A stretch of 64,000 nt of DNA from Verrucomicrobiota bacterium (GTDB lineage: Bacteria; Verrucomicrobiota; Lentisphaeria; Oligosphaerales; Oligosphaeraceae), in the NCBI GenBank assembly GCA_019136135.1, contig JAGVUR010000156.1:533-64532 (forward strand), given 5' to 3'. Shown here piece after piece: positions 4,912 through 38,895 of the stretch (position 1 is its first letter; every line of letters starts with the position of its first letter). Made by a program: the position numbers and the translations under genes. A model generated the notes under the pieces. That model did no database searches. It was given only the letters and a program-made list of their open reading frames with translations, and had not been told where the DNA came from.

Positions 4912-5835
4912 ATGTCATCACCAACATTGCTGGTTTTGGCTGCGGGTTTGGGCAGCAGATATGGAGCGGGCATCAAGCAGATGGATCCAGTTGGGCCGGA
5001 CGGCGAGTTCGTCCTTGACTATTCGGTTTACGATGCATGGAAGGCTGGATTTGGGAAGGTTGTTTTCGTCATACGCGAGGATTTGGAGGACGATCTGAAG
5101 GCTCATTTCCAGGATCGTCTTGTTGGGAAGGTTGACGTCGAGTATGTCGTCCAGGACATGAAGGCTTTGCCTGGCGGGGTTCAATGTCCCGGAAGGCGCG
5201 TCAAGCCCTGGGGTACAGGTCATGCGATTTGGAGCGCCCGGAATGCGATCAGCGGGCCTTTTGCGGCGATCAATGCCGATGACTACTACGGTTCCACGTC
5301 ATACGACTTGATGTCGCAATTCCTCGGTTCGCCGCAGTGCGACCCCACCAACTACGGGATGGTGGGATTCGAGCTCAACAAGACGCTTTCCGCCAATGGA
5401 ACCGTCTCCAGAGGCATCTGCGAAAAGACCCGCGAGGGCATTCTTGCCAGCGTCATCGAGAGAAAGGGAATCGAAAGCGTCGATGGCGAAATCCGTTGCC
5501 TCGCCGAGGATGGGCATGGGGTCATTCCATTGACGGGACGCGAAACGGCTTCGATGAACTTCTGGGGATTCCATCCGACCATCTTCGGACACCTAGACAG
5601 GCTTTTCGCCGAATTCTGGCAACGTGGATGCAAGGATTTGAAGGCCGAATACTATATCCCAACGGTTGTAGATACCCTGATCCAGCGTGAGGAAATCACG
5701 GTGAAGGTATTGGAAACCACGGATCGTTGGTTCGGCATGACCTACGCCGAGGACAGGGCCATTGTGAAGGAACGACTCAAGGACCTGACGGCGCTGGGCA
5801 TGTACCCGCATCGACTTTGGAACAGCAACTCCTAA
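4912..5835 (+). CDS. sugar-phosphate nucleotidyltransferase family protein
   Basis: LVLAAGLGSRYG (the G-x-G-x-R NTP-transferase loop) ...PWGTGHA...INADDYYG. AGGAG at 4901-4905 precedes the ATG at 4912. Confidence 0.75.
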   Translation: MSSPTLLVLAAGLGSRYGAGIKQMDPVGPDGEFVLDYSVYDAWKAGFGKVVFVIREDLEDDLKAHFQDRLVGKVDVEYVVQDMKALPGGVQCPGRRVKPWGTGHAIWSARNAISGPFAAINADDYYGSTSYDLMSQFLGSPQCDPTNYGMVGFELNKTLSANGTVSRGICEKTREGILASVIERKGIESVDGEIRCLAEDGHGVIPLTGRETASMNFWGFHPTIFGHLDRLFAEFWQRGCKDLKAEYYIPTVVDTLIQREEITVKVLETTDRWFGMTYAEDRAIVKERLKDLTALGMYPHRLWNSNS

Positions 5836-5894
5836 GGAAATTCCCTGCATTGTCGCAAAACATACAAACACAACAAGCCACGGAGAACGAAGCA

Positions 5895-7349
5895 ATGAAA
5901 GAAGTCTTCAAATTGGTAGCCCCCAAGACCGTACCTGTATTGGATCCCGATTTCAGGCCGCCTGTCCTATCCAATCGCGCTTTCCTCGCTGAGGTTGACG
6001 CTTCAGGTTGTGCGATTCCCTTCATCTTCGCCGTAGAGCGTGACGGTGGGAAAATCTCCCGCTTTGACACACGTATTTTTGACATGCGGCATCCCCGTGC
6101 GGCGGCGAATTTCTTCTACATCGAACGCACATTGAAGTTTTTGTTGTGGCAATTTGGCGGCTGGAAGGTCACGATCCACGGTCCGAAGGAACTGGTCAGC
6201 TACTTGGAGGCCTGCTACAGCACAACTGGAATCAGGCGTTTTGACGCGGAGTTCTGGGGCACACAGACCTACGAAAAGGAAATGCAGATCGTCCATGCCC
6301 CGACGCCCAGCGACGTTCCGAAGGCCAGCGATGGCGCGGGAATGGCCGTCAAGCTGGATTGGAAAGGCTGGAGAATCGGGTTCGACCTGGGCGCCAGCGA
6401 CCGCAAAGTCGCCGTGGTCAAGGACGGGAAGTTGGCGCTGAAGGCAGACGGCGAACCCGTCCTCAGCGAAGAATACGTCTGGGATCCCAGGCCTCAAACC
6501 AATATCCAATACCACTACGATGCAATCAACTGGATCCTGAAAGAAGCGGAAAAGGCGATCAAGGCGATCGACCCGAAGGCGAAAGTCGAAGCGATCGGCG
6601 GAAGTTCGGCGGGCGTGTACGTCGATGGACGCGTCAGAGTCGCATCGCTCTTCAGGGGCATCACCCCGCGTGAACGGTTCGATGCCGAAGCGGCGCCGAT
6701 ATTCAAGGAAATCGCCAAGCAGTGGGGTGTTCCGCTCCGCCTGGAAAACGATGGTGACGTGACCGCATTGGCGGGTTCGATCGCCTTGGGCGAGGGCGCG
6801 GTCCTCGGATTGGCGATGGGTTCGTCGCTGGCCGGCGGATACGTCGATGAAAACATGATGGTCAAGGGCTGGATGAACGAACTTGCCTTCGCGCCGGTTG
6901 ACTACAATCCCAACGCGGCGGTTGACGAATGGTCCCGGGATTTCGGCGTCGGAGCCAACTACTTCTCGCAACAGGCCGTGGCACGCCTGATCTACGCGGC
7001 CGGCATCGAGATGCCCGACATTGACCCGGCGGCGTTCCCGCTGAGGCTTGCTAGGGTTCAGGAGCTGATGCACAAGGGCGATCCAAGGGCGCGCAAGATC
7101 TACGAGACCATCGGCGTCTACTTGGGCTATACCATCGCCCATTACGCTGACTTCTACAAGCCGATCAAGCATGTCGAGGTGTTGGGACGCGTTGTTACTG
7201 GCGAAGGCGGCCAGATTATCCTCGACTTGGCCAAGAAGGTCCTCAAGGAAGAATTCCCCGAATTGGCGAACATCCACTTCTACGAACCCGACGAGCGCGA
7301 GAAGCGGCATGGACAAGCCGCGGCCGCCGCAAGCCTCCCATTGACCTGA
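5895..7349 (+). CDS. ROK/BadF-type (actin-fold) sugar-kinase-like protein with a roughly 190-aa N-terminal extension
   Basis: GFDLGASDRKVAVV...IGGSSAGVYV...LENDGDVTALAG...GSSLAGGY are sugar-kinase/actin-fold phosphate motifs. The ATG at 5895 was chosen because the upstream extension overlaps the previous gene. Confidence 0.7.
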   Translation: MKEVFKLVAPKTVPVLDPDFRPPVLSNRAFLAEVDASGCAIPFIFAVERDGGKISRFDTRIFDMRHPRAAANFFYIERTLKFLLWQFGGWKVTIHGPKELVSYLEACYSTTGIRRFDAEFWGTQTYEKEMQIVHAPTPSDVPKASDGAGMAVKLDWKGWRIGFDLGASDRKVAVVKDGKLALKADGEPVLSEEYVWDPRPQTNIQYHYDAINWILKEAEKAIKAIDPKAKVEAIGGSSAGVYVDGRVRVASLFRGITPRERFDAEAAPIFKEIAKQWGVPLRLENDGDVTALAGSIALGEGAVLGLAMGSSLAGGYVDENMMVKGWMNELAFAPVDYNPNAAVDEWSRDFGVGANYFSQQAVARLIYAAGIEMPDIDPAAFPLRLARVQELMHKGDPRARKIYETIGVYLGYTIAHYADFYKPIKHVEVLGRVVTGEGGQIILDLAKKVLKEEFPELANIHFYEPDEREKRHGQAAAAASLPLT

Positions 7350-7447
7350 GACCAATGCCCCTCGAAAAGGGCATTTGACGAATGCCGTCGCCGAGGCGGA
7401 ACGATAATCGGCGACGGCTGCATAACAACTTGCATGGATGTAGAACT

Positions 7448-8224
7448 ATGACAAACAAGGAACGCGACGAGTTTATTGCGGAACAGCTGAACAAGGGTGT
7501 CTCGCTCTCCGATGTCCAATCTGCCCTGGCAAAGGATTTCAATATCAAGATGACCTATTTCGAGCTCCGGATGGTCGCGATGGGGCTTGACGTTGACTGG
7601 GAGAAGCAAGACAAGCAAGTCCAGAAGCCGAAAGCCGATGCGGCTGGACCGGCGCATGCCGAGGAATCGGATGAGGAGTTTGAAGACGAGGAAGAGGACG
7701 AAAAGGACGTTCGCACGATGCCTGACTTCGTCCGAAAAAGCGCTGCCAACAAGCCGTTGGACGACGAGGATGAAGAGGACGATGAGGCGGCAGTCACCAT
7801 CGACGAGGTTCCGCTTGCTGGGTCGCAGCTTTCCGGCAAGGTCAAGTTTGCCTCTGGCGCATCGGGAATCTGGTTCCTGGGACCGCGTGGATTGGGCTAT
7901 GACTTGGACGAAGGCTCGGAGGAACCCAATGACGAAGACGTGGAAATCTTCCAGAAGCAACTCCAGGATGCCGTCAGGAAATACCAGGAGCAACTGAAGA
8001 GGGAAGAGGAGGCATCGCCAACGACCGTCGAAATTGACAAGGTGATGAGACCTGGCGTGCAGCTTTCCGGAAGCGTAGCGTTTGCCTCGGGCGCAACCGC
8101 AAAATGGGAAGTGGGAGCCAGGGGATTGCAGGTCATTCCTGATGATGATTCCGAAAAACCGACCCAGAAGGACATCATTTTCTTCCAGCGTGAACTCCAA
8201 AAGCACTTGAGCGGGCAAGCCTAA
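7448..8224 (+). CDS. acidic hypothetical protein with an internal duplication of about 65 aa
   Basis: The ORF has a D/E-rich linker and two similar modules: VTIDEVPLAGSQLSGKVKFASGASGIWFLGPRGLG...IFQKQLQ and VEIDKVMRPGVQLSGSVAFASGATAKWEVGARGLQ...FFQRELQ. Confidence 0.6.
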   Translation: MTNKERDEFIAEQLNKGVSLSDVQSALAKDFNIKMTYFELRMVAMGLDVDWEKQDKQVQKPKADAAGPAHAEESDEEFEDEEEDEKDVRTMPDFVRKSAANKPLDDEDEEDDEAAVTIDEVPLAGSQLSGKVKFASGASGIWFLGPRGLGYDLDEGSEEPNDEDVEIFQKQLQDAVRKYQEQLKREEEASPTTVEIDKVMRPGVQLSGSVAFASGATAKWEVGARGLQVIPDDDSEKPTQKDIIFFQRELQKHLSGQA

Positions 8225-8350
8225 TTGGTAAATGGCTGGAAAAATCCGCTCCAATGATTTGCCATATCCATTTCACGGGATATATTAAGCTCTTCAAATT
8301 ATTTTATCAAAGTCATTCATTTTGTAGGCACGTTGTAGTAAGGAAAAGGT

Positions 8351-8638
8351 ATGTCGGTCAAGATAAGACTTCGTCGTACTGGCAAGCGCAATCAAGCTTG
8401 CCATCGTATTGTTGTTGCGGACAGCCGCAGTCCCCGTGATGGTCGCTTTATCGAAGTGATTGGATTCTACGATCCCCGTCACGAGAACGAGAAGATTGAT
8501 TTGGAGCGTGTTGACTACTGGCTGCCTCGCGGCGCCCAGGTCAGCGACACGGTCAATAAGATCATCAAGCGCGCTCGCGAAGGCAAGTCCAGGGGCAGTG
8601 CCACCGCGGCAGCCGCAGCTGAAGAAACGCAGGCATAA
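8351..8638 (+). CDS. rpsP: 30S ribosomal protein S16
   Basis: MSVKIRLRRTGKRNQACHRIVVADSRSPRDGRFIEVIGFYDP. Confidence 0.95.
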   Translation: MSVKIRLRRTGKRNQACHRIVVADSRSPRDGRFIEVIGFYDPRHENEKIDLERVDYWLPRGAQVSDTVNKIIKRAREGKSRGSATAAAAAEETQA

Positions 8639-8659
8639 CCCTATGTTGGCAATAGAGCT

Positions 8660-9085
8660 ATGACGTTTTCATTTTGGAAAAAAATGTTTGGCAGCCAGTC
8701 TAGTGCTGGCACTGACGACCAGGTCGTTCCCGATGCTCCGGTTCGCGGATCTGTCGATTCCGAGCTTGAAGCGATCGAGTCTGGCGATGGAGTTGATCAG
8801 GTCGAGGACATAGAGGTTCAGGAATCGGGTCCAGCCAAGGTCAGCCGCCAGGGATTGGAAGATTTCGTCCTTTACGTTGCCCGTGCCTTAGTTGACAATC
8901 CCGATACGGTTGCTGTTTCGACGTTGGAGAAGGAGCGCCTGAGCGTGATTCAGATTCGTTGCGACAAGCCTGACATCGGGAAGATCATCGGCAAGAACGG
9001 CAAGACGATCGCGGCGTTGCGGTTGTTAGTCAGCGGTGCTGGTGGGCGTATCGGTCTTCGAATGACTGTTGACGTATTGGATTGA
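8660..9085 (+). CDS. KH-domain RNA-binding protein (YlqC-like) with an acidic N-terminal extension
   Basis: DKPDIGKIIGKNGKTIAALRLLV (GxxG KH motif). The position between rpsP and trmD is conserved. Confidence 0.8.
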   Translation: MTFSFWKKMFGSQSSAGTDDQVVPDAPVRGSVDSELEAIESGDGVDQVEDIEVQESGPAKVSRQGLEDFVLYVARALVDNPDTVAVSTLEKERLSVIQIRCDKPDIGKIIGKNGKTIAALRLLVSGAGGRIGLRMTVDVLD

Positions 9086-9116
9086 CGGATTTACGGCTCG
9101 CGAGGTAGCGTCAGCT

Positions 9117-9800
9117 ATGCGCATGCGGTTCGATATTGTTACCTTGTTCCCCGAGATATGCGAGTCGTCTCTTTGTGTTTCGATCATTGGTCGCGCCAGG
9201 AAGTCTGAGCTTGTAGAGATCAACACGATTGATTTGCGCAAGTATTCACACGACCGTCGTGGCACTGTCGACGACACGCCGTATGGCGGGGGATGCGGGA
9301 TGGTATTAAGGCCCGAGCCGTTGTTTGAATGTGTTGAGGACATCGCCGATGAGCGTGCTCACGTGGTGTTGATGACCCCCCAGGGTCGCAGGTTCACGCA
9401 GGAAGATGCGGTTCGTCTTTCCCGGTTGGATCATATCGTTTTGGTATGCGGTCATTACGAGGGTATTGACGAGCGGGCCAGGCAGGTATTGTTTGACGAG
9501 GAGTTGTCGCTTGGGGATTTCGTTCTCACGAATGGGGCGATTGCCGCCGTTGTGATGTGCGATGCGATAGTACGGTTGTTACCGGGTGTGCTTGGTGATG
9601 ACGAATCGTCTGTAGAGGAATCGTTTGGTGGCGATGAGCGGTTGTTGGAGTATCCGCAATACACACGCCCATATGAGTATCGTGGAATGAGAGTGCCGGA
9701 CGTGCTCCTGTCCGGGGACCATGAACAGATCAAGCAATGGCGGTTGGAGCAGCGTTATGTCCGTACTTCGGGCCGCCGTCCCGATCTGCTTGGTCAATGA
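9117..9800 (+). CDS. trmD: tRNA (guanine37-N1)-methyltransferase
   Basis: [11 protein letters not shown]...[13 protein letters not shown]...[11 protein letters not shown]...[11 protein letters not shown]. Confidence 0.95.
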
Positions 9801-9853
9801 TGAACAGGAATACAGGTGAAGCAATGGAAAACAAGGAAGAAAAGAATCCGGGA

Positions 9854-10201
9854 ATGAGCTTGATTGAGCAGTTGAGGCGTGAAAACCTGAAGACGGACGT
9901 TCCGTCTTTCTCCATCGGCGACACGATCAAGGTCGGCGTAAAGATCATTGAAGGCGGCAAGGAACGCATTCAGGAATTCGAAGGAGTCGTAATCGCTCGT
10001 GACGGTGGCGGCATTGCCGAGACCATCACCCTGCGTCGCGTCAGCCATGGGCAAGGCGTGGAGCGCATTTTCCCGATTCATTCGCCGCGCATCGCCAGCT
10101 TCAAGCTGATCCGTCAAGGTCGCGTCCGCCGTGCGAAGCTCTACTATCTCCGCGGCAAGGTCGGCGCCGCCGCCAGGGTCAAGGACAAGCGCCTCCACTA
10201 A
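9854..10201 (+). CDS. rplS: 50S ribosomal protein L19
   Basis: [48 protein letters not shown]. An alternative upstream ATG at 9824 is possible. Confidence 0.93.
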
Positions 10202-10275
10202 GAACTTCTCAACGCTTCTGGGATGCATGGGCATGCCAGGGCAAAAAACTCTACTAACCTCTCTTTAGCATTACG

Positions 10276-10318
10276 GGAAGGAGCTCGGCTAATGTCGCGG
10301 CTCCTTTTCCTTTGTTTG
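10276..10318 (+). terminator. candidate intrinsic terminator after rplS
   Basis: Stem AAGGAGC (10278-10284) pairs with GCTCCTT (10300-10306) and is followed by TTCCTTTGTTT. Confidence 0.45.
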
Positions 10319-10340
10319 GAAAGGATTCCCTTGAAGACGT

Positions 10341-11000
10341 ATGACGAAGTCCGACACGCAACGCGACATGTTCGAATTTGAACGTCAGGCACGGCATGGT
10401 CAGCCTGGTCTGGTGGTATGCGGTGTTGACGAGGCTGGTCGCGGACCATTGGCTGGTCCGGTTGTCGTCGCTGCGGTGATTTTGCCTGATGATTTCGAGT
10501 TGGCTGTCTATGATTCAAAGGCGTTCAGCGAAGACGACCGTGAAAGTTTGGCTTTGGAGATCAAAGGCGATTCCCGTATCATTTGGAAGCTTGCGGTCCG
10601 TTCGGCCGGCGAGATTGATCGCTACAACATCCTTCGGGCTACGCATCAGGCGATGCGTGAGGCTGTTCAGCAACTGGAGCCAGAACCTCAACTTGCACTG
10701 GTCGACGGGCTGAAGGTTCCTGATTTTCCGGTTCCAGCGCAGTTTATCGTCAAGGGCGACACCAGGTCCGCCAGCATCGCCACGGCCAGCATCTTGGCGA
10801 AAACGCACCGCGACGAGCTGATGCGCAAACTCGACCAGGAATATCCGGCATATGGATTCGCGCAACACAAGGGGTACGGAACGCAAGCGCATCTGGATGC
10901 ACTTCGGAAGTTCGGTCCTTGTCCGGAGCATAGGCGCACATTCGCCCCCGTCGCGGCAATTATCCATCCTCCACCAGTTCAACTGGAACTTTTCAACTAG
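10341..11000 (+). CDS. rnhB: ribonuclease HII
   Basis: VCGVDEAGRGPLAGPVVVAAVIL...DSK...ASILAKTHRD...YGFAQHKGYGT. Confidence 0.93.
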   Translation: MTKSDTQRDMFEFERQARHGQPGLVVCGVDEAGRGPLAGPVVVAAVILPDDFELAVYDSKAFSEDDRESLALEIKGDSRIIWKLAVRSAGEIDRYNILRATHQAMREAVQQLEPEPQLALVDGLKVPDFPVPAQFIVKGDTRSASIATASILAKTHRDELMRKLDQEYPAYGFAQHKGYGTQAHLDALRKFGPCPEHRRTFAPVAAIIHPPPVQLELFN

Positions 11001-11004
11001 CACA

Positions 11005-12210
11005 ATGATAGCCAAAAGGAATCTCCGAGACAAGATCAGCCCCGCTGCCGTCCAGGTGGCCACCAGGCTCGTGCAAAACGGGTTTGAGGCCTACGTGGTC
11101 GGCGGAGCTGTCCGAGACTTGCTCCTCGGATCCATTCCGAAAGACGTGGACATCACTACGAATGCGACCCCCGAACAGGTGAGGTCGGTCTTCGGACGGC
11201 GGCAATGCGTCGTCATCGGACGACGATTCAAGCTTGCGCAAGTCAGAATGGGGAATGAGACCTTCGAGGTCAGCACGTTCCGAAGAAAACCGTCGCACGA
11301 AGAAAGCAAAGGACGCGATGACGATGACGGAATGATGATTTGGAACGACAACGAGTACGGCACGCTGGAAGACGATGCCAGCAGGCGTGACTTCACGGTC
11401 AATTCGCTCTACTTGGACGTAGTCGGCAAGCAGGGTGTCATCGATATGACTGGAGGCCTTAAGGATTTGAAGGCCGGGATTGTTCGCGTCATCGGCAATC
11501 CCGAGGAGAGGTTCATTGAGGATCCGGTTCGAATGTTGCGCGCCCTCAAGCTGGTTGGGCTTCATGGCTTCAAGTTGCATCCCGCCACGGAGGCCGCATT
11601 GAAGGCGAACAAGGCGATGATTTCCATGTCCTCGCCAGCCCGGCTCTATGAGGAATTGCTGAAGATTCTGTTCACGGGGCGTTCTCTTGCGATTTTGACT
11701 GCCTTCCACAAGTACGGTTTTTTGACGTATTTCTGGCCTGACCTGGAAGAGATTTGGTCCAAGCAGGACGGGGTTTTGGTGCGTCGTCTTTTAAAGACCC
11801 GTGATGCCGAAGTCGCGACAGGCAACTACTCGCACTCCAGGGCCTTGGCTTTGGCGACCGTCTCGTTGCCTGTGGCTTTGAGGGCGTTGCGACCGATTAC
11901 GGAGGATGACGAGGACGCCATCCTGTTGGGCGATGGCGGCGCGGTTTGCCTCAGGGTGGTCCGGCAATTCTTCAGCAGCTTTGTCTTGCCGAGGCTCTAT
12001 GCCATTCGCGTCAAGGAAATTCTCCTGTTGATTCCCGCTTTGAGTTCCGAACTGGCACCAAGATTCTACAGGCATCGGGAATACAAGTACGGAAGACTGC
12101 TCCTGCAACTCCTCGTCAAAACCCTCGATTGGGATCCGGAAATCGCCAATCGCCTTCCGCCCCCGGAAATCGCCTCGAATATGAAGCGAAGAAGACGGCG
12201 AAAACACTGA
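11005..12210 (+). CDS. pcnB: poly(A) polymerase I (tRNA nucleotidyltransferase superfamily)
   Basis: YVVGGAVRDLLLG..PKDVDITT, plus VIGRRFKLAQV which fits the PAP-specific [LIV][LIV]G[RK][RK]F signature. The tail is basic (KRRRRRKH). Confidence 0.85.
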   Translation: MIAKRNLRDKISPAAVQVATRLVQNGFEAYVVGGAVRDLLLGSIPKDVDITTNATPEQVRSVFGRRQCVVIGRRFKLAQVRMGNETFEVSTFRRKPSHEESKGRDDDDGMMIWNDNEYGTLEDDASRRDFTVNSLYLDVVGKQGVIDMTGGLKDLKAGIVRVIGNPEERFIEDPVRMLRALKLVGLHGFKLHPATEAALKANKAMISMSSPARLYEELLKILFTGRSLAILTAFHKYGFLTYFWPDLEEIWSKQDGVLVRRLLKTRDAEVATGNYSHSRALALATVSLPVALRALRPITEDDEDAILLGDGGAVCLRVVRQFFSSFVLPRLYAIRVKEILLLIPALSSELAPRFYRHREYKYGRLLLQLLVKTLDWDPEIANRLPPPEIASNMKRRRRRKH

Positions 12211-12217
12211 TTCACTC

Positions 12218-12456
12218 TAAAAAAAGCAGTTGAAACTGGATTTAGTTCCTAATTGATTGATTTTCAAATGGTTATAAATTTTATTCCGTTAACCATGTTG
12301 CTGAATTGAAATGCGTCAGTCTTCTGTAGCGCCTTTACAAGGCGCCCCGGCATGGGGGCATCCTGTCCCCAGGCTTTTAGCCTGGGGTGAGGAACTTACC
12401 CAAGGACAGTGCCTTGTAAAGGCACTACAACCATAAGGCGTCAACTGCTTTTTTTA
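12218..12456. mobile_element. MITE-like non-autonomous element (copy E1)
   Basis: Perfect 16-bp TIRs: TAAAAAAAGCAGTTGA (12218-12233) and TCAACTGCTTTTTTTA (12441-12456). The 9-bp direct repeat GATTCACTC lies at 12209-12217 and 12457-12465. There is no ORF. Homologous copies start at 20134 and 38535. Confidence 0.8.
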
Positions 12457-12459
12457 GAT

Positions 12460-13218
12460 TCACTCTGTTTTCTTCATGTCGTTCCATGCCGCAAGATAGG
12501 GAATGCATGGCCAGACCGATTCCCGTCTGAGCAGCGACTCTTTTACGTTTCTTGCCTCTTCTGTTTTTCCGGCATATTCAAGATAGACTGCGATGCCGTA
12601 CATCGCGACAACGGCGTTCAAGTCATTCTTATCTTGTTCCGCTTGATCAAGTGCTTCATCCGCAGTCCTTTTTCCAAGGATAACCTCCACGGCAGATTGA
12701 TATGCCGTATGGTGTCCGACACTCATGTCGTCACGGTATGTTCCTATCAGCTTGTCTGGCAAGTTTCCGCGCATGCAGCATAGGGAATTCCAATAGAGGA
12801 TTGCAATTCCCATCTCATCTCCGCAGGGAAGAACCTTTGTAAAATTGCCTGACGCCGCTTCATAGTCTCTTTGCAGGTAGTGCCACACCCCCATTGGATA
12901 GGCGATTGTTTTTTCGTTGCCATTGAGAGAACGGCTCTTTGCGTATGCTTTTTTTGCTTCAGTGAAATGCCGTAATGTCAGATAGGCTCCGCCTAAGCGA
13001 ACGTACAGCATCGGATCATCGGCACGAATTATCTCCGCAGAATGATATGCATCGATCGCCTCGCGAAAACGGTATTGTCCTGAAAGCAGGTTTCCCAGCT
13101 TTACCCGGCTTTCGTAGTCATCCGATTCCCGAAGCCAGAACATTTCTTCCGTATCTTCACATAGGCATGGAGCATTTCCGAGCTGGCTATCGATAGAAGC
13201 GTATCTCATCTCCTGCAT
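12460..13218 (-). CDS. TPR-like repeat protein, last gene of the lar operon
   Basis: Helical-repeat composition (YRFREAIDAYHSA..., FTEAKKAYAKS..., YEAASGNFTKV...). Its start lies 2 nt after the larC stop. Confidence 0.6.
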   Translation of the reverse strand: MQEMRYASIDSQLGNAPCLCEDTEEMFWLRESDDYESRVKLGNLLSGQYRFREAIDAYHSAEIIRADDPMLYVRLGGAYLTLRHFTEAKKAYAKSRSLNGNEKTIAYPMGVWHYLQRDYEAASGNFTKVLPCGDEMGIAILYWNSLCCMRGNLPDKLIGTYRDDMSVGHHTAYQSAVEVILGKRTADEALDQAEQDKNDLNAVVAMYGIAVYLEYAGKTEEARNVKESLLRRESVWPCIPYLAAWNDMKKTE

Positions 13219-20114: not shown

Positions 20115-20133
20115 AAACAGCTTGGTTTAAACC

Positions 20134-20539
20134 TAAAAAAGCAGTTGAAGCTGGATTCAGTTCCTAATTGACTGATTATCAAACAGTTAAAAATTTTGTT
20201 CGTTTCACCATGCTGGTGATTTTAAGTGCGTCTGTTGCGCCTTTACAAGGTGCCCGGCAAGGGGGCATCCTGTCCCCGGGCTGAAGCCCGGGGTTAAGCA
20301 TGGTCATGCGCCTACGGCGCAAAGTCTTAGGCGCGGACCAGCCGTCCGCAATCCACGCGGGTGGGACACGGACCAGACACGGACGATAATTCGGACTTGT
20401 CAGAAGGATTTACATAATGCATTGCACCGTAGGTGCTTAACTATGCTTAACCCCAGACTTTAGTCTGGGGAGAGAAAACCACCCGAAGACCGTGCCTTGT
20501 AAAGGCATTACAATCATAAGGTGTTAACTGCTTTTTTTA
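20134..20539. mobile_element. MITE-like element (copy E2) carrying a nested palindromic insertion
   Basis: Ends are TAAAAAAGCAGTTGA (20134-20148) and TTAACTGCTTTTTTTA (20524-20539). It is flanked by GGTTTAAACC at 20124-20133 and 20540-20549. The left roughly 160 bp is colinear with E1. The inner element 20294-20450 has arms of about 27 bp starting TTAAGCAT. Confidence 0.75.
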
Positions 20540-20549
20540 GGTTTAAACC

Positions 20550-20599
20550 TAAAAAAAGCAATTGACGCCATGGCAAAATGACTGTCATGGCGTTTTTTT
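20550..20599. terminator. bidirectional intrinsic terminator
   Basis: An A-run (8 A, 20550-20557), then stem ACGCCATG (20565-20572) / CATGGCGT (20586-20593), then T7 (20593-20599). Confidence 0.7.
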
Positions 20600-20652
20600 G
20601 GGGGGGCGGAATGGGGCGGACGAATTTGCCCTGAACAGGACAAGACGGTTTC

Positions 20653-20681
20653 AGGTACGGGCACCCGGGGTGCTCGTACTC
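20653..20681 (+). repeat. REP-like palindrome GTACGGGCACC-N-GGTGCTCGTAC (copy 1)
   Basis: AGGTACGGGCACCCGGGGTGCTCGTACTC. Near-identical copies are at 47530-47558 and 47648-47676, a perfect version at 34904-34942, and an inverted version at 38827-38855. Confidence 0.8.
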
Positions 20682-20725
20682 AAACGGTGTCGCCGGTCAA
20701 GGGGCTGAAAATGGCGCATTTCTGG

Positions 20726-23308
20726 TCAGACAGGTCGGACAGGTCGGACAGGTCGGACAGGTCGGACAGGTCGGACAGGTCGGACAGGTCGGACAGGTCG
20801 GACAGGTCGGACAGGTCGGACAGGTTGTTTCTGTGCGAGGCTTGATTCGATCGCATTTCGAACCCGGTCTGTGATCGTGCGATAGTCGTCTTCTTCGAGA
20901 GGAATAATTGGCTCGAGGAAGGTGACAGTGATCTCCTGGCGAAGCTTGGGGAAGAGCTTTTTCCTTGGGAGTGCGTCGTAGGCGCCGTCGATTGCGACGG
21001 GTACGATCGGTACGTTGAGTTCCTTTGACAGGATAGCGAATGTTCTCTTGAATGATCCTAGGGAGCCGTCGAGTGTTCGTGTCCCTTCAGGGAAGAGGAT
21101 GATCTTGTGTCCCTTTGCGAGTACGGATGCGAGTTTTTGAAGTGAGAGCTTGAGGTTGTCGTTGATGTCCATGACGATGACATTGTGTCGATCGGCGAAG
21201 GCTTTTCCGTACCAGCTTTTCATGTGGTCGGCTTTTGCGTAGAAGAAGGTGTTTTTTAGGTTGTTGCCACGCAGGAATGCTGCGAGCAGCGGCGCGTCAA
21301 GGAAGCTTTGGTGGTTTGGCGCGATGATGCATGGTCCTTCTGGAATGTTCTCGGTTCCCGTTCCCTTGAACTTGAAGGCGATGTGGAGGAAGCATCTTGA
21401 AATCGCGTTGATCAGGTTATGTGCGAACCAACTTCTCGGAAGTTTGAGCTTGACGTTTTCCTTGAGGACCTGGGACCATTTGAAGCTCAGGTTTTCCCGG
21501 GCGACTCCTTTTTGCGATATCGACGTGATGGCGAGGGCAAGCTTTTCGGGGGTTGGGTTGTCAGCAATCGTTTGGTCTTGGATTTCAATGTTAAAGGTTT
21601 CGTTGATGAAAACCGCGAGCGCGACTTTCCCGAGCGAGTCCATGCCGAGGTCGATTTCCAGGTGGTCGTCGGGATGGAGGGCTACCTTCAGTGTGCTTTC
21701 CAGGTATTGCTTGATCGCCTTGTATTCTTGCGAATCCGGGTCTTCCTTTGGGGGATGGATTCGATGCTGCTTGATTGACGCAAGCAGTTCGAGTTCGTAT
21801 CTCTTGAGTTTTCCGATTCTGGTCCTCGGGAGCGGTTCGGACAGCAGGGAGAATTTTAGGATCCTGTTGTAGCTTGACGACTGTTCATTGTAGGGTGCGA
21901 TGACCTTTTGGCGGATGGTTTCCTCGATGTTGAGGATGCCTTGGCCTTCGAGTTTCTTGACATTGGGCAGGATCAAGGCATGCAAGGCATCCTCGGTGCC
22001 TATGACACCGACCTCGGCGATGATGTCGCCTGCCAGGTTCATCAGCTTTTGCTCGACGGTTTCGGGGTTGATGTTCTTTCCGTTGGGGAGGACGATGATT
22101 TCCTTTTTTCGACCTGTGATGAAGATGTAGTCATCATCGTCCACATAGCCCAGGTCTCCGGTATGGAGCCAGCCATCCTTCATGATTTCGCTTGTTTCCT
22201 CGGGCTTGTTGTAGTATCCGATCATCACATTGTCGCCGCGAACCGTGATTTCTCCGTCTTGGATGCGTACTTCGCAACCTGGGAGGAGCTGTCCCGCCGA
22301 GCCGTGCCTGGGCTTTCCGGGTCTTGTGAACGAGATCATCGGCGCTGTTTCGGTCATTCCGTAGCCGTTCAGGATCTCGAATCCGAGGGTTCTGAAGTCC
22401 AGGATTACTTGCTTGTCCAAGGCGGCGCCGCCACAAGGCATGTACCGGATCGAACCACCGAACTTGTTCTGGACAGACTTGAAGACTATCCTGGAAAAGG
22501 CAAGAGAATTGACTTTGGAGCAGAGCCAGAAGAGGCTTTTGGCAATGGAGCTTTGCCGGATCTTGCCCATGATGCCGTCCCGTAGAAGGGTATAGAGCCT
22601 GGGGACGCCGATGATCATCGTGATCTGGTACTGGGCGAGCGTGCCCAGGATGTCGGCTGCCGCCATTGAAGGCGCGAATACTGCTGTTGCCCCGATGGTC
22701 AAAGGCATGACGAGGGTGCCCTGGAGCGGGAGGACGTGATGGAGCGGGAGGAGGACCAGGAGCCTGTCGTCAGGTTGGTAGATCGGGACTTTTTTCGAGA
22801 CGGAGACGAGATTGGCGTAAAGGTTCTTGAAGGTTAGCATCACGCCTTTTGGGCTGCCGGTAGTTCCCGAGGTGTAGATGATCAGTGCGGTATCGTTGTC
22901 GGGATTGTCGGCGAACTCGTTGTCTAGGTCAGGCGATTCGGGAATGACTTCATCGGCATTGACCATGCAACTTGGCTTCCAGCTGGTGGCTTCCAGCGCC
23001 TTTTTGAGGTTTTGCTCCGTGGTGTTTGTGTAGAGGATTGCGGTGGGTTTCGCATCGTCCAGGATATAGGCGACTTCATCCGGGCTGGAGAGCGCGTCAA
23101 TGGGAATTGCGATCGCATGGGCGTGCCAGGTGCCGTAGAGAGCATACACCCATTCGAGACGGTTTTCAGCGAATATGGCGACCCTTTCCCCAGGCTGGCA
23201 GCGGAGTATCCGGGAGTAGCGGATGGCATGGGCGATGAGGGTATGGTAGTCGATACGCTGATCCTTGTAGATCAAGGCGATTTTGGAAGAAGGTTGGAGG
23301 AATCGCAT
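20726..23308 (-). CDS. fusion protein: acyl-CoA/acyl-ACP synthetase (AMP-binding) + carrier-protein domain + PlsC-type acyltransferase, with a C-terminal (PVR)10 tail
   Basis: IIYTSGTTGSPKGV (AMP-binding P-loop), GWLHTGDLG, DLGMDSLG (Ppant Ser motif), APNHQSFLDAP (HX4D acyltransferase), FPEGTRT, then PVRPVR...PV. Confidence 0.85.
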   Translation of the reverse strand: MRFLQPSSKIALIYKDQRIDYHTLIAHAIRYSRILRCQPGERVAIFAENRLEWVYALYGTWHAHAIAIPIDALSSPDEVAYILDDAKPTAILYTNTTEQNLKKALEATSWKPSCMVNADEVIPESPDLDNEFADNPDNDTALIIYTSGTTGSPKGVMLTFKNLYANLVSVSKKVPIYQPDDRLLVLLPLHHVLPLQGTLVMPLTIGATAVFAPSMAAADILGTLAQYQITMIIGVPRLYTLLRDGIMGKIRQSSIAKSLFWLCSKVNSLAFSRIVFKSVQNKFGGSIRYMPCGGAALDKQVILDFRTLGFEILNGYGMTETAPMISFTRPGKPRHGSAGQLLPGCEVRIQDGEITVRGDNVMIGYYNKPEETSEIMKDGWLHTGDLGYVDDDDYIFITGRKKEIIVLPNGKNINPETVEQKLMNLAGDIIAEVGVIGTEDALHALILPNVKKLEGQGILNIEETIRQKVIAPYNEQSSSYNRILKFSLLSEPLPRTRIGKLKRYELELLASIKQHRIHPPKEDPDSQEYKAIKQYLESTLKVALHPDDHLEIDLGMDSLGKVALAVFINETFNIEIQDQTIADNPTPEKLALAITSISQKGVARENLSFKWSQVLKENVKLKLPRSWFAHNLINAISRCFLHIAFKFKGTGTENIPEGPCIIAPNHQSFLDAPLLAAFLRGNNLKNTFFYAKADHMKSWYGKAFADRHNVIVMDINDNLKLSLQKLASVLAKGHKIILFPEGTRTLDGSLGSFKRTFAILSKELNVPIVPVAIDGAYDALPRKKLFPKLRQEITVTFLEPIIPLEEDDYRTITDRVRNAIESSLAQKQPVRPVRPVRPVRPVRPVRPVRPVRPVRPVRPV
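20729..20824. repeat. 9-bp tandem repeat (GACAGGTCG), about 10.7 units
   Basis: Read directly: perfect in-frame units that encode (PVR)10PV on the minus strand and end at the TGA stop (20726-20728). Confidence 0.95.
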
Positions 23309-38465: not shown

Positions 38466-38534
38466 TGTTGAAGAGTGGAATTGCTTCGACAGCGAATCCC
38501 GTCGAAGCAACTCAACATCTTCACGGGGTTGTCC

Positions 38535-38884
38535 TAAAAAAAGAAGCTGACGCCAGCTCTTTATTCCTAATGCATTGAAAAAGTGGCTTTCAAGCTACCG
38601 TTTTGGGACACTAAATGCAGTGGCGCAATGATTGAAATGCGTCAAACCTCTGTAGCGCCTTTACAAGGCGCCCGGCTTGGTGGGCATCCACCCCCAGGCT
38701 AAAGTCTGGGGTTAAGCATGGTCAGGCGCTTACGGCGCCAATGCGTTATGTGGTTCCGTCAGGCCTCTCCGACCTGCCCGACCAGGAATGCGCCTGTTTT
38801 AGCCATTTGACTGCTGACAGCCCCTTGAGTACGAGCACTCTGGGTGACCGTACTCAGGTAGCCATGGCGCAACTGCTTTTTTTA
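38535..38884. mobile_element. MITE-like element (copy E3), diverged; its right half is replaced by an inverted REP hairpin
   Basis: Ends are TAAAAAAAGAAGCTGA (38535-38550) and GCAACTGCTTTTTTTA (38869-38884). It shares the modules TGTAGCGCCTTTACAAGGCGCCC, GGGCATCC, the CCCCAGG...CTGGGG hairpin and TTAAGCATGGTCAGGCGCTTACGGCGCC with E1/E2. I could not find a flanking duplication. Confidence 0.65.
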
Positions 38885-38895
38885 GCTTCACAGGT

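Follow-up and report, generated by a model that had tools for sequence, protein, structure and literature searches.

Why do two convergent genes have, between their stop codons, a non-coding segment of about 240 bp bounded by exact inverted repeats, and does this segment serve the genes that it separates? The question is posed by a 64,000-nucleotide stretch of DNA (the window) from a Verrucomicrobiota bacterium of the family Oligosphaeraceae, class Lentisphaeria (GenBank assembly GCA_019136135.1, contig JAGVUR010000156.1, positions 533 to 64,532 of the forward strand). A preliminary description of the window, made from its letters alone, had compared the segment to a MITE, a miniature transposable element with inverted repeats. 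We conclude that the segment at 12216-12458 is very probably a fossil MITE copy, belonging to a family that would be mobilised in trans by an IS1380-like DDE transposase acting on the ends CCTAAAAAAAGCAGTTGA. Coordinates without a prefix are window positions; loci outside the window are cited by L number.

The element and its empty allele

Read directly from the window, the 16-bp TAAAAAAAGCAGTTGA at 12218-12233 recurs as its exact reverse complement at 12441-12456, and the direct repeat GATTCACTC flanks the pair at 12209-12217 and 12457-12465 (or 10 nt with the following T). Complementarity of the two ends extends to 18 of 18 nt (TCTAAAAAAAGCAGTTGA, 12216-12233 against 12441-12458), and the element, here called copy 1, measures 239-243 bp. 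On its left, the open reading frame (ORF) at 10852..12210 (+), 452 aa, carries PolyA_pol domains and is pcnB-like; on its right, the ORF at 12460..13218 (-) encodes a 252-aa TPR protein and heads a LarC/LarB/LarE-like operon. Inside copy 1 there is no ORF above 42 aa, the longest having 41-42 aa. Both the inverted and the direct repeat, like the convergent stop codons (TGA at 12208-12210 and TCA at 12460-12462), lie where the preliminary description had placed them. When up to three mismatches are allowed, the window has nine occurrences of the 16-mer, whereas 0.64 are expected and no more than four were reached in 100 shuffles; the repeat is therefore not due to chance, and the extra matches mark two further copies in the window.

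Direct support for an insertion comes from a naturally empty allele. The contig L163 belongs to the window's own species, by its 95.9% identity to window 7008-12216. Its alignment with the window runs as far as 12216 and resumes at 12457; it lacks the element, and reads ...ACATTGATTCACTTTGTTTTC... / ...TGATTCACTTTG... / ...AAACATTGATTCACTTTGTTTTCTTCATG..., with a single GATTCACT. In this allele the two stop codons are 1 nt apart (TGAtTCA), which is exactly the pre-insertion sequence predicted earlier by removing the element and one repeat. The orthologous empty site thus holds one copy of the repeat and not two. The same site is filled with a short form in the window, empty in L163 and filled with a long form in a sister species. 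This pattern fits ancestral polymorphism, excision or transfer by recombination, and we make no choice among the three. Two other candidate empty sites were set aside: the pcnB relatives at L012 and L013 (~67% identical) have lost synteny downstream of pcnB and are uninformative, and the 49-bp spacer that occupies the site of copy 2 in the sister species, where copy 2 is absent, is too diverged to serve as a clean empty site.

A dispersed family with a common terminal repeat

With copy 1, the 64-kb window holds three copies of the family, and the family copies are mutually 80-88% identical. A scan with an internal 22-nt pattern, one genome per species, gave 21 core matches, marking at least 21 copies, in the metagenome-assembled genome (MAG) UBA1407, many of them at contig ends, two in another Lentisphaeria MAG, and one in Dyadobacter, which we judged to be chance. 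The window DNA is ~93% identical to UBA1407 and to GCA_040768065.1, and a protein labelled 'Lentisphaerae bacterium' shares 96% identity with its pcnB. Further copies with independent flanking duplications were found, which bears out the earlier view of a non-autonomous, multi-copy mobile element bounded by terminal inverted repeats (TIRs).

Other families share the terminal repeat and nothing else. These are family B (window 20548-~20830, L026, L031, L025), family C (L018), and metagenomic mini-elements of 157-250 bp; chimeras of family B with family A, to which the full-length elements described here belong, occur as copy 3 and at L097. Unrelated interiors under one terminal repeat are what would be expected if the repeat is the substrate of a transposase and hence the functional unit.

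Elements also often adjoin other ends of the superfamily. A family-B terminal repeat directly follows the right duplication of copy 2, and L015, L016 and L025 have ends in tandem or alone. This suggests insertion beside sequences that resemble the element's own ends.

Probable IS1380-like partner elements

Which enzyme could move these elements? The preliminary description had found no transposase with matching ends in the window and had left the mobilising partner unnamed. The first point was borne out by tblastn with the cognate transposases, which found no matching transposase in the window. The second can now be amended, since the type of partner appears to be an IS1380-like element of ~1.7 kb with the same terminal repeat. 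We scanned metagenome contigs with the 17-mer CTAAAAAAAGCAGTTGA, which listed at least 120 loci; among the matches listed, six loci carry the repeat CCTAAAAAAAGCAGTTGA in inverted pairs 1.63-1.77 kb apart, the arrangement of an insertion sequence (IS). The three loci whose ORFs were analysed (L068, L121, L139) have one ORF each, of 523-534 aa, matching Pfam DDE_Tnp_1_4 and DDE_Tnp_1 (60-68 bits for DDE_Tnp_1_4, against a cut-off of 34.7). An unclassified transposase from a cultured Polaromonas plasmid shares 48% identity with them; the IS there has CCTA...TAGG ends and the duplication TTAAA. The group is large: over 8000 of its protein clusters occur in public metagenomes, mostly on contigs of ~1.7-2 kb.

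The likeness between MITE and IS goes beyond the terminal repeat. The left 50-58 nt of the MITE are 76-82% identical to the left ends of the IS copies L068 and L076, and a hairpin, CTCACC-N5-GGTGAG, lies 87-101 nt from the left end in five of six full-length IS copies (L068, L076, L121, L136 and L139); L131 has no match to it at the equivalent position. Most MITE families with these ends keep the hairpin at the equivalent place, and copy 1 has a degenerate form of it. The first codons of the transposase, ~8-13 (..HQKGE..), are overlapped by the hairpin in L139 and L121. It could be a site of transposase binding or of translational control.

An IS701-like element was rejected as the partner. 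It has ends of its own (CTGGAGTTTGGCA...) and merely interrupts a family-A copy at L029 3191-5158 (= L033), encoding a 467-aa DDE_5 transposase. It is followed, at L029 5160-5800, by two copies of another GC-rich structured repeat. L029 and L033 come from representative genomes of different species, yet are 99.4% identical over 3.6 kb.

Termini and target duplications

In all 23 IS copies, CC precedes TAAAAAA... and GG follows the other end; these include 17 more copies of two related insertion sequences, every one with CC...GG termini. Across 45 tabulated paired ends, CC adjoins the repeat in 28 and GG in 27. Exact 5-bp duplications flank 13 independent copies and differ from one another (they include TTAAA, TTTAA, ATAAA, ATTAT, ATTAC, TTCAA, ATAAT, GTAAT and TTCAC), and copy 2 has 6 bp; on the IS side, 5-bp duplications are seen at L139, at L131 and at the Polaromonas IS. 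A true 9-bp duplication would in addition require a distal GG in the left flank and a distal CC in the right flank, and these are generally absent. Taken together, CC and GG adjacency, the 5-bp duplications and the lack of distal GG and CC give a family rule of CC...GG termini with a 5-bp duplication of an AT-rich target, WTNAW. Elements of the IS1380 family (ISfinder) have ends that begin with CC and make 4-5 bp target duplications. The 5-bp rule also agrees with the 5-bp duplications of ISEcp1, a member of that family (PMC2887853). The parent group is most similar to IS1380 and, as far as sequence comparison can tell, appears to work like it, though it scores below the curated family threshold.

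The 17 further IS copies were rejected as a source of duplication lengths. Their flanks match at 3-4 of 5 positions, and identical left flanks occur with differing right flanks; we therefore take these short-read contigs to be chimeras across the 1.7-kb repeat, from which only the termini and a target consensus can be drawn. Core sites like those of integron attC (GTTRRRY) were likewise considered in the flanks and dropped, since only one of the flanks fits and copies occur scattered among housekeeping genes.

Several points weigh against the IS1380-like origin. First, all the sequences are from MAG or metagenome assemblies, and the IS copies in particular come from metagenome contigs not assigned to a host; the ~350 kb of Lentisphaeria DNA searched yielded no autonomous copy. 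Second, the best NCBIfam match of the partner ORFs is IS1380 (NF033539), but at 129-135 bits against a cut-off of 180, and the partner transposases are ~25% identical to the annotated transposases of ISSsu5 and ISEcp1. Third, copy 1 itself ends in TC...GA and is flanked by a perfect repeat of 9-10 nt, for which the 5-bp rule needs two end mutations and a coincidence in the flank. In L023 (TT) and L026 (AT), similarly, CC is replaced by the two bases found just after the right-hand duplication.

Proposed origin and later deletion

On the reading that we prefer, the left ~100 bp of the element derive from the left end of the IS, with its terminal repeat, its subterminal hairpin and a stretch upstream of where the transposase starts. 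Little beyond the terminal repeat is kept at the right end. The middle is made up of GC-rich palindromic hairpins. A 417-bp element would have inserted at TTCAC between the convergent stop codons, probably the only position there that disrupts neither gene. Later, in the lineage of the window, 178 bp would have been lost by deletion between two near-identical internal hairpins.

The last step can be followed by alignment. At the identical site, with identical flanks, sister-species sequences carry a 417-bp element (L001, L003, L004, L007, L011), from which copy 1 differs by the absence of 178 central bp. The breakpoints fall within two near-identical hairpins, CCCCGGGCTGAAGCCCGGGG and CCCCAGGCTTTTAGCCTGGGG. 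An equal segment has been lost independently, at another locus and with the same junction, in L023, and a similar segment with different junctions in L027 and L072. Since the breakpoint hairpins have at most 9-10 identical bases in common, an assembler short-cut is unlikely, with the caveat that these are MAG assemblies. The 239-bp copy 1 is thus an internal-deletion derivative of the 417-bp element. The centre of the 417-bp element also contains degenerate CGGAC repeats.

The best reading is that of a selfish element which the two genes tolerate because it sits at the one neutral position between them, where it may have an incidental effect on transcription; a function for the host would not be needed. 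The features of copy 1 and of the other family members in the window are collected in Table 1.

Table 1. Features of copy 1, its flanks and the related elements of the window
Feature	Position	Strand	Remarks
Stop codon TGA of the pcnB-like gene	12208..12210	+	ORF listing and domain search
Left target duplication TTCAC (5 bp by the family rule)	12211..12215		core of the 9-bp repeat 12209-12217; family rule and empty allele
Left terminal inverted repeat, 18 nt, TCTAAAAAAAGCAGTTGA	12216..12233	+	outermost C of the consensus CCTAAAAAAAGCAGTTGA is T
AT-rich left module	12216..12320	+	derived from the left (transposase-upstream) end of the parent IS
Degenerate subterminal hairpin TTAACCatgttGCTGAA	12289..12305	+	intact form TCACC-N5-GGTGA
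17-nt palindrome GCGCCTTtacAAGGCGC (H1)	12329..12345		
Hairpin CCCCAGGCttttaGCCTGGGG	12367..12387		fusion of two hairpins of the 417-bp form; junction of the 178-bp deletion at ~12367-12371
17-nt palindrome GTGCCTTgtaAAGGCAC (H1')	12409..12425		
Right terminal inverted repeat, 18 nt, TCAACTGCTTTTTTTAGA	12441..12458	-	family consensus end ...TAGG
Right target duplication TTCAC (5 bp by the family rule)	12459..12463		overlaps the stop codon of the TPR gene (TCA 12460-12462, minus strand)
Copy 2, full-length, 410 bp	20132..20541	+	CC...GG termini; flanks TTTAAA (20126-20131, 20542-20547)
Family-B partial element, starting with the terminal repeat CCTAAAAAAAGCAATTGA	20548..20830 (right limit approximate)	+	ends in a (GGTCGGACA)11 array
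Copy 3, chimera of a left family-A half and a right inverted family-B end of ~70 bp	38533..38886	+	no target duplication

Possible transcription termination and insulation

Might the element nevertheless have been kept because its A7-stem-T7 ends stop both convergent transcripts? As an exapted mobile terminator or insulator it would act where the stop codons of the empty allele are 1 nt apart with no terminator between the genes. On both strands the terminal stem directly adjoins a U7 tract, and folding of the element as a whole is strong (z of about -9 to -10). The positions of the copies point the same way: of 16 copies, 8 are placed between convergent genes (p=0.027 by a binomial test against 25%) and 14 are downstream of at least one gene 3' end, often 2-12 bp from stop codons. 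Moreover, the family-B fragment forms a canonical terminator-like hairpin (20564-20594) with a T-run, and the pneumococcal SPRITE offers a precedent, being a mobile repeat of terminator-like form with a bias towards convergent 3' ends (PMC3184786).

We nevertheless consider this explanation unlikely. A terminator scan of 12216-12458 found no canonical intrinsic terminator on either strand. In the predicted fold, the only stem adjacent to a U-tract is the terminal repeat itself, whose 8 non-A/U pairs close a branched domain of 207 nt (or 385 nt). The A7/T7 tracts belong to the terminal repeat of the IS; as they were inherited from ends that lie 1.7 kb apart there, where termination would be impossible, they were not shaped for it. 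On these grounds we do not follow the preliminary description in seeing the form of a bidirectional intrinsic terminator. Furthermore, a strain of the same species (L163) lives without the element altogether, and the positional bias is equally well explained by the WTNAW target preference together with purifying selection against insertions into promoters and genes.

A broader proposal takes the whole family as a vehicle that seeds bidirectional transcription stops, with copies retained as insulators of convergent transcription, or else takes the unusual duplication pattern described below as real. Here the WTNAW preference may land copies beside stop codons, and A7-stem and stem-T7 may be the ends bound by the transposase. 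We hold this proposal to be quite unlikely, and return to the tolerated selfish element as the reading that we favour.

A possible literal 9-bp duplication

Very unlikely, in our view, is the possibility that copy 1 is to be taken literally, as an element running from TA7 to T7A with 16-bp repeats and a true 9-bp stagger, inserted by another transposase (IS4-, IS1- or IS903-like) or by a non-canonical event. Duplications of 9 bp are indeed made by transposases of the IS4/IS10/IS50, IS1 and IS903 types. The repeat is identical at 9 of 9 positions (10 of 10 with the next T), the empty allele has a single GATTCACTT, and no end mutations are needed. The repeats of L023 and L026 also extend through the absent CC, to 7 nt, and four of five deviant dinucleotides match this pattern of an extended repeat. 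However, such a reading fits copy 1 alone among the family copies, and it sits badly with the termini and flanks given above, in which CC and GG adjoin the repeat and the distal GG and CC are generally missing from the opposite flank. The length of the stagger is, besides, normally a fixed property of a DDE transposase.

How, then, does the 5-bp rule account for copy 1? Its termini are TC...GA, so that GA+TTCAC+TC reads as a 9-bp repeat, and the outer 2+2 bases of that repeat occupy the positions of the family's terminal dinucleotides. The extended repeats may be coincidence aided by AT-rich flanks, or the trace of a non-canonical joining event. The empty allele cannot separate the two models, because both predict the same sequence. 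Of the earlier description, therefore, the 16-bp TIRs and the 9-bp direct repeat stand as observed sequence, whereas the family rule would redraw them as CC...GG ends with a 5-bp duplication. If the longer duplications (7 or 9 bp) at copies lacking CC/GG were real, they would imply an unusual end-processing or target-joining step in an IS1380-like (piggyBac-related) transposase.

A possible structured RNA

The strong fold also raised the question of an RNA product. An Rfam scan of the whole window at gathering thresholds gave no hits, and ARAGORN found no tRNA or tmRNA; Rfam scans by E-value returned weak, chance-level matches and a sub-threshold match to Acido-Lenti-1 (RF01687) only. The Acido-Lenti-1 motif, of which there are 89 representatives, occurs in Acidobacteria and Lentisphaerae (PMC2864571). 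The match covers the whole 46-nt model, at window 20274-20321 in copy 2 (22.9 bits) and at L024 1923-1970 (23.4 bits), against a gathering score of 37, and falls in the 178 bp lost from copy 1. On the other arm of the element there is an inverted second copy of the two-hairpin module, which hints that motifs of the Acido-Lenti-1 type may occur as modules of repetitive DNA.

Comparison of the copies gave no clear covariation support for a selected RNA. In the long-range model from RNAalifold, 1 of 108 pairs is compensatory and the covariation term is unfavourable (+1.59). Under a local-hairpin model, 97.8% of cells are paired and compensatory changes occur in 3 of 56 pairs, all from one sub-lineage. 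We rejected the long-range interior stem, whose C-A mismatches are compensatory pairs in the local-hairpin model. A mobile structured-RNA gene, in which the IS-derived left end is the promoter, the hairpin module an Acido-Lenti-1-related small RNA and the right repeat the end of the transcript, is hence highly improbable: the full-length form does match the whole model with the same two-hairpin architecture (PMC2864571) and the local hairpins are well paired with three compensatory changes, but the scores are well below gathering, the module is missing from copy 1, the covariation is unfavourable or confined to one sub-lineage, no sigma-70-like promoter was found in copy 1, and these terminal repeats are missing from the sequences that flank Acido-Lenti-1 in its published alignment.

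Further observations at the locus and nearby

A block of ~0.9 kb around the insertion site (window 11900-12800 compared with L038 and L163) is 97-98% identical among three lineages that otherwise are 86-96% identical. It spans the 3' ends of both genes, with third codon positions 95-96% identical against 74-86% outside, and is common to filled and empty alleles. Introgression of the insertion allele was considered on the basis of this block and rejected, as the empty allele L163 is equally similar there.

Other strains show rearrangements at or near the site. In the sister species, one strain (L164 1490-1745, compared with L038 11210-16186) is without the whole TPR-larC-larB-larE block and the element. 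After its pcnB come ...TGATTCA|GACCATGG..., some 246 bp unrelated to the locus, and next the upstream region of the FAD oxidoreductase; the left breakpoint lies inside the left target duplication of the element. This loss may be a transposon-associated adjacent deletion. The L163 contig ends, at 5320-5359 (window ~12577), in a family terminal repeat, CCTAAAAAAGCAGTTGATATCGTGACGCCC, inside the TPR ORF, which is either a separate, gene-disrupting insertion in that strain or an assembly tip. Compared with window 5839-5852, L038 4724-4859 has an extra segment of ~120 bp with the inverted repeat CAATAATTAAG.../...CTTAATTATTG, absent from the window, which may be an unrelated small mobile element.

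Next to copy 2, a perfect-looking tandem array, (GGTCGGACA) x 11.3, at 20724-20825 enters the 3' end of the ORF 20726..23308 (-), which encodes an AMP-binding/acyltransferase protein. In the sister species the array is absent and the gene ends earlier. The 9-nt unit GGTCGGACA is also found beside or inside elements at L024 6700-6790 and L026 5070-5095.

Significance and relation to known systems

The analysis puts a name to a repeat family that breaks the assemblies of these Lentisphaeria MAGs, in which many contigs end inside copies, and it connects these repeats with an IS1380-like group that is very abundant and has hardly been annotated. The finding would gain weight if copies terminate or insulate convergent transcription, or if the pattern of 5, 7 and 9 bp is real transposase chemistry. 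For the former, the filled and empty alleles within one species are a natural experiment on a terminator effect.

Among known systems, Acido-Lenti-1 resembles the full-length form alone, which shares with it an 8-bp stem with a UGAN loop, a linker of 12-14 nt starting with UAA, a 5-bp stem with a triloop, and the host phylum; the score below gathering, the absence of the module from copy 1 and the different flanks set them apart. SPRITE is a compact hairpin of ~105 bp with a U-tract, whereas here the U-tracts lie on transposon ends 207-385 nt apart. Tn3-derived TIMEs are short, retain only the inverted repeats of their parent and form mosaics (PMC4133298), for which copy 3 and L097 are the counterparts here; their parent is of the Tn3 family, not IS1380-like.

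With the IS1380 family (ISEcp1, ISSsu5), the parent IS shares a single DDE ORF, a length of ~1.7 kb, CC(TA) termini and a 5-bp AT-rich duplication. It differs in its transposase of ~525 aa, which has ~25% identity and scores below the NCBIfam cut-off, and in the A7 tract of its terminal repeat; the window element differs further in carrying no transposase at all. In the literature searched we found no description of IS1380-derived MITEs or of MITEs from Lentisphaerae.

By its sequence, copy 1 would be classed as a bacterial MITE: it is shorter than ~600 bp with no transposase gene, has TIRs and an empty site, shares its ends with an IS, and belongs to a set of dispersed copies with their own duplications. 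Like Correia/NEMIS, ERIC, RUP, Nezha and the MaeMITEs, the family combines a length below 600 bp, TIRs and a target duplication with multiple, intergenic, hairpin-forming copies whose ends are those of an autonomous IS. It differs from them in the family of its parent, in its host phylum, Lentisphaerota, and in the several unrelated interiors that a single terminal repeat encloses.

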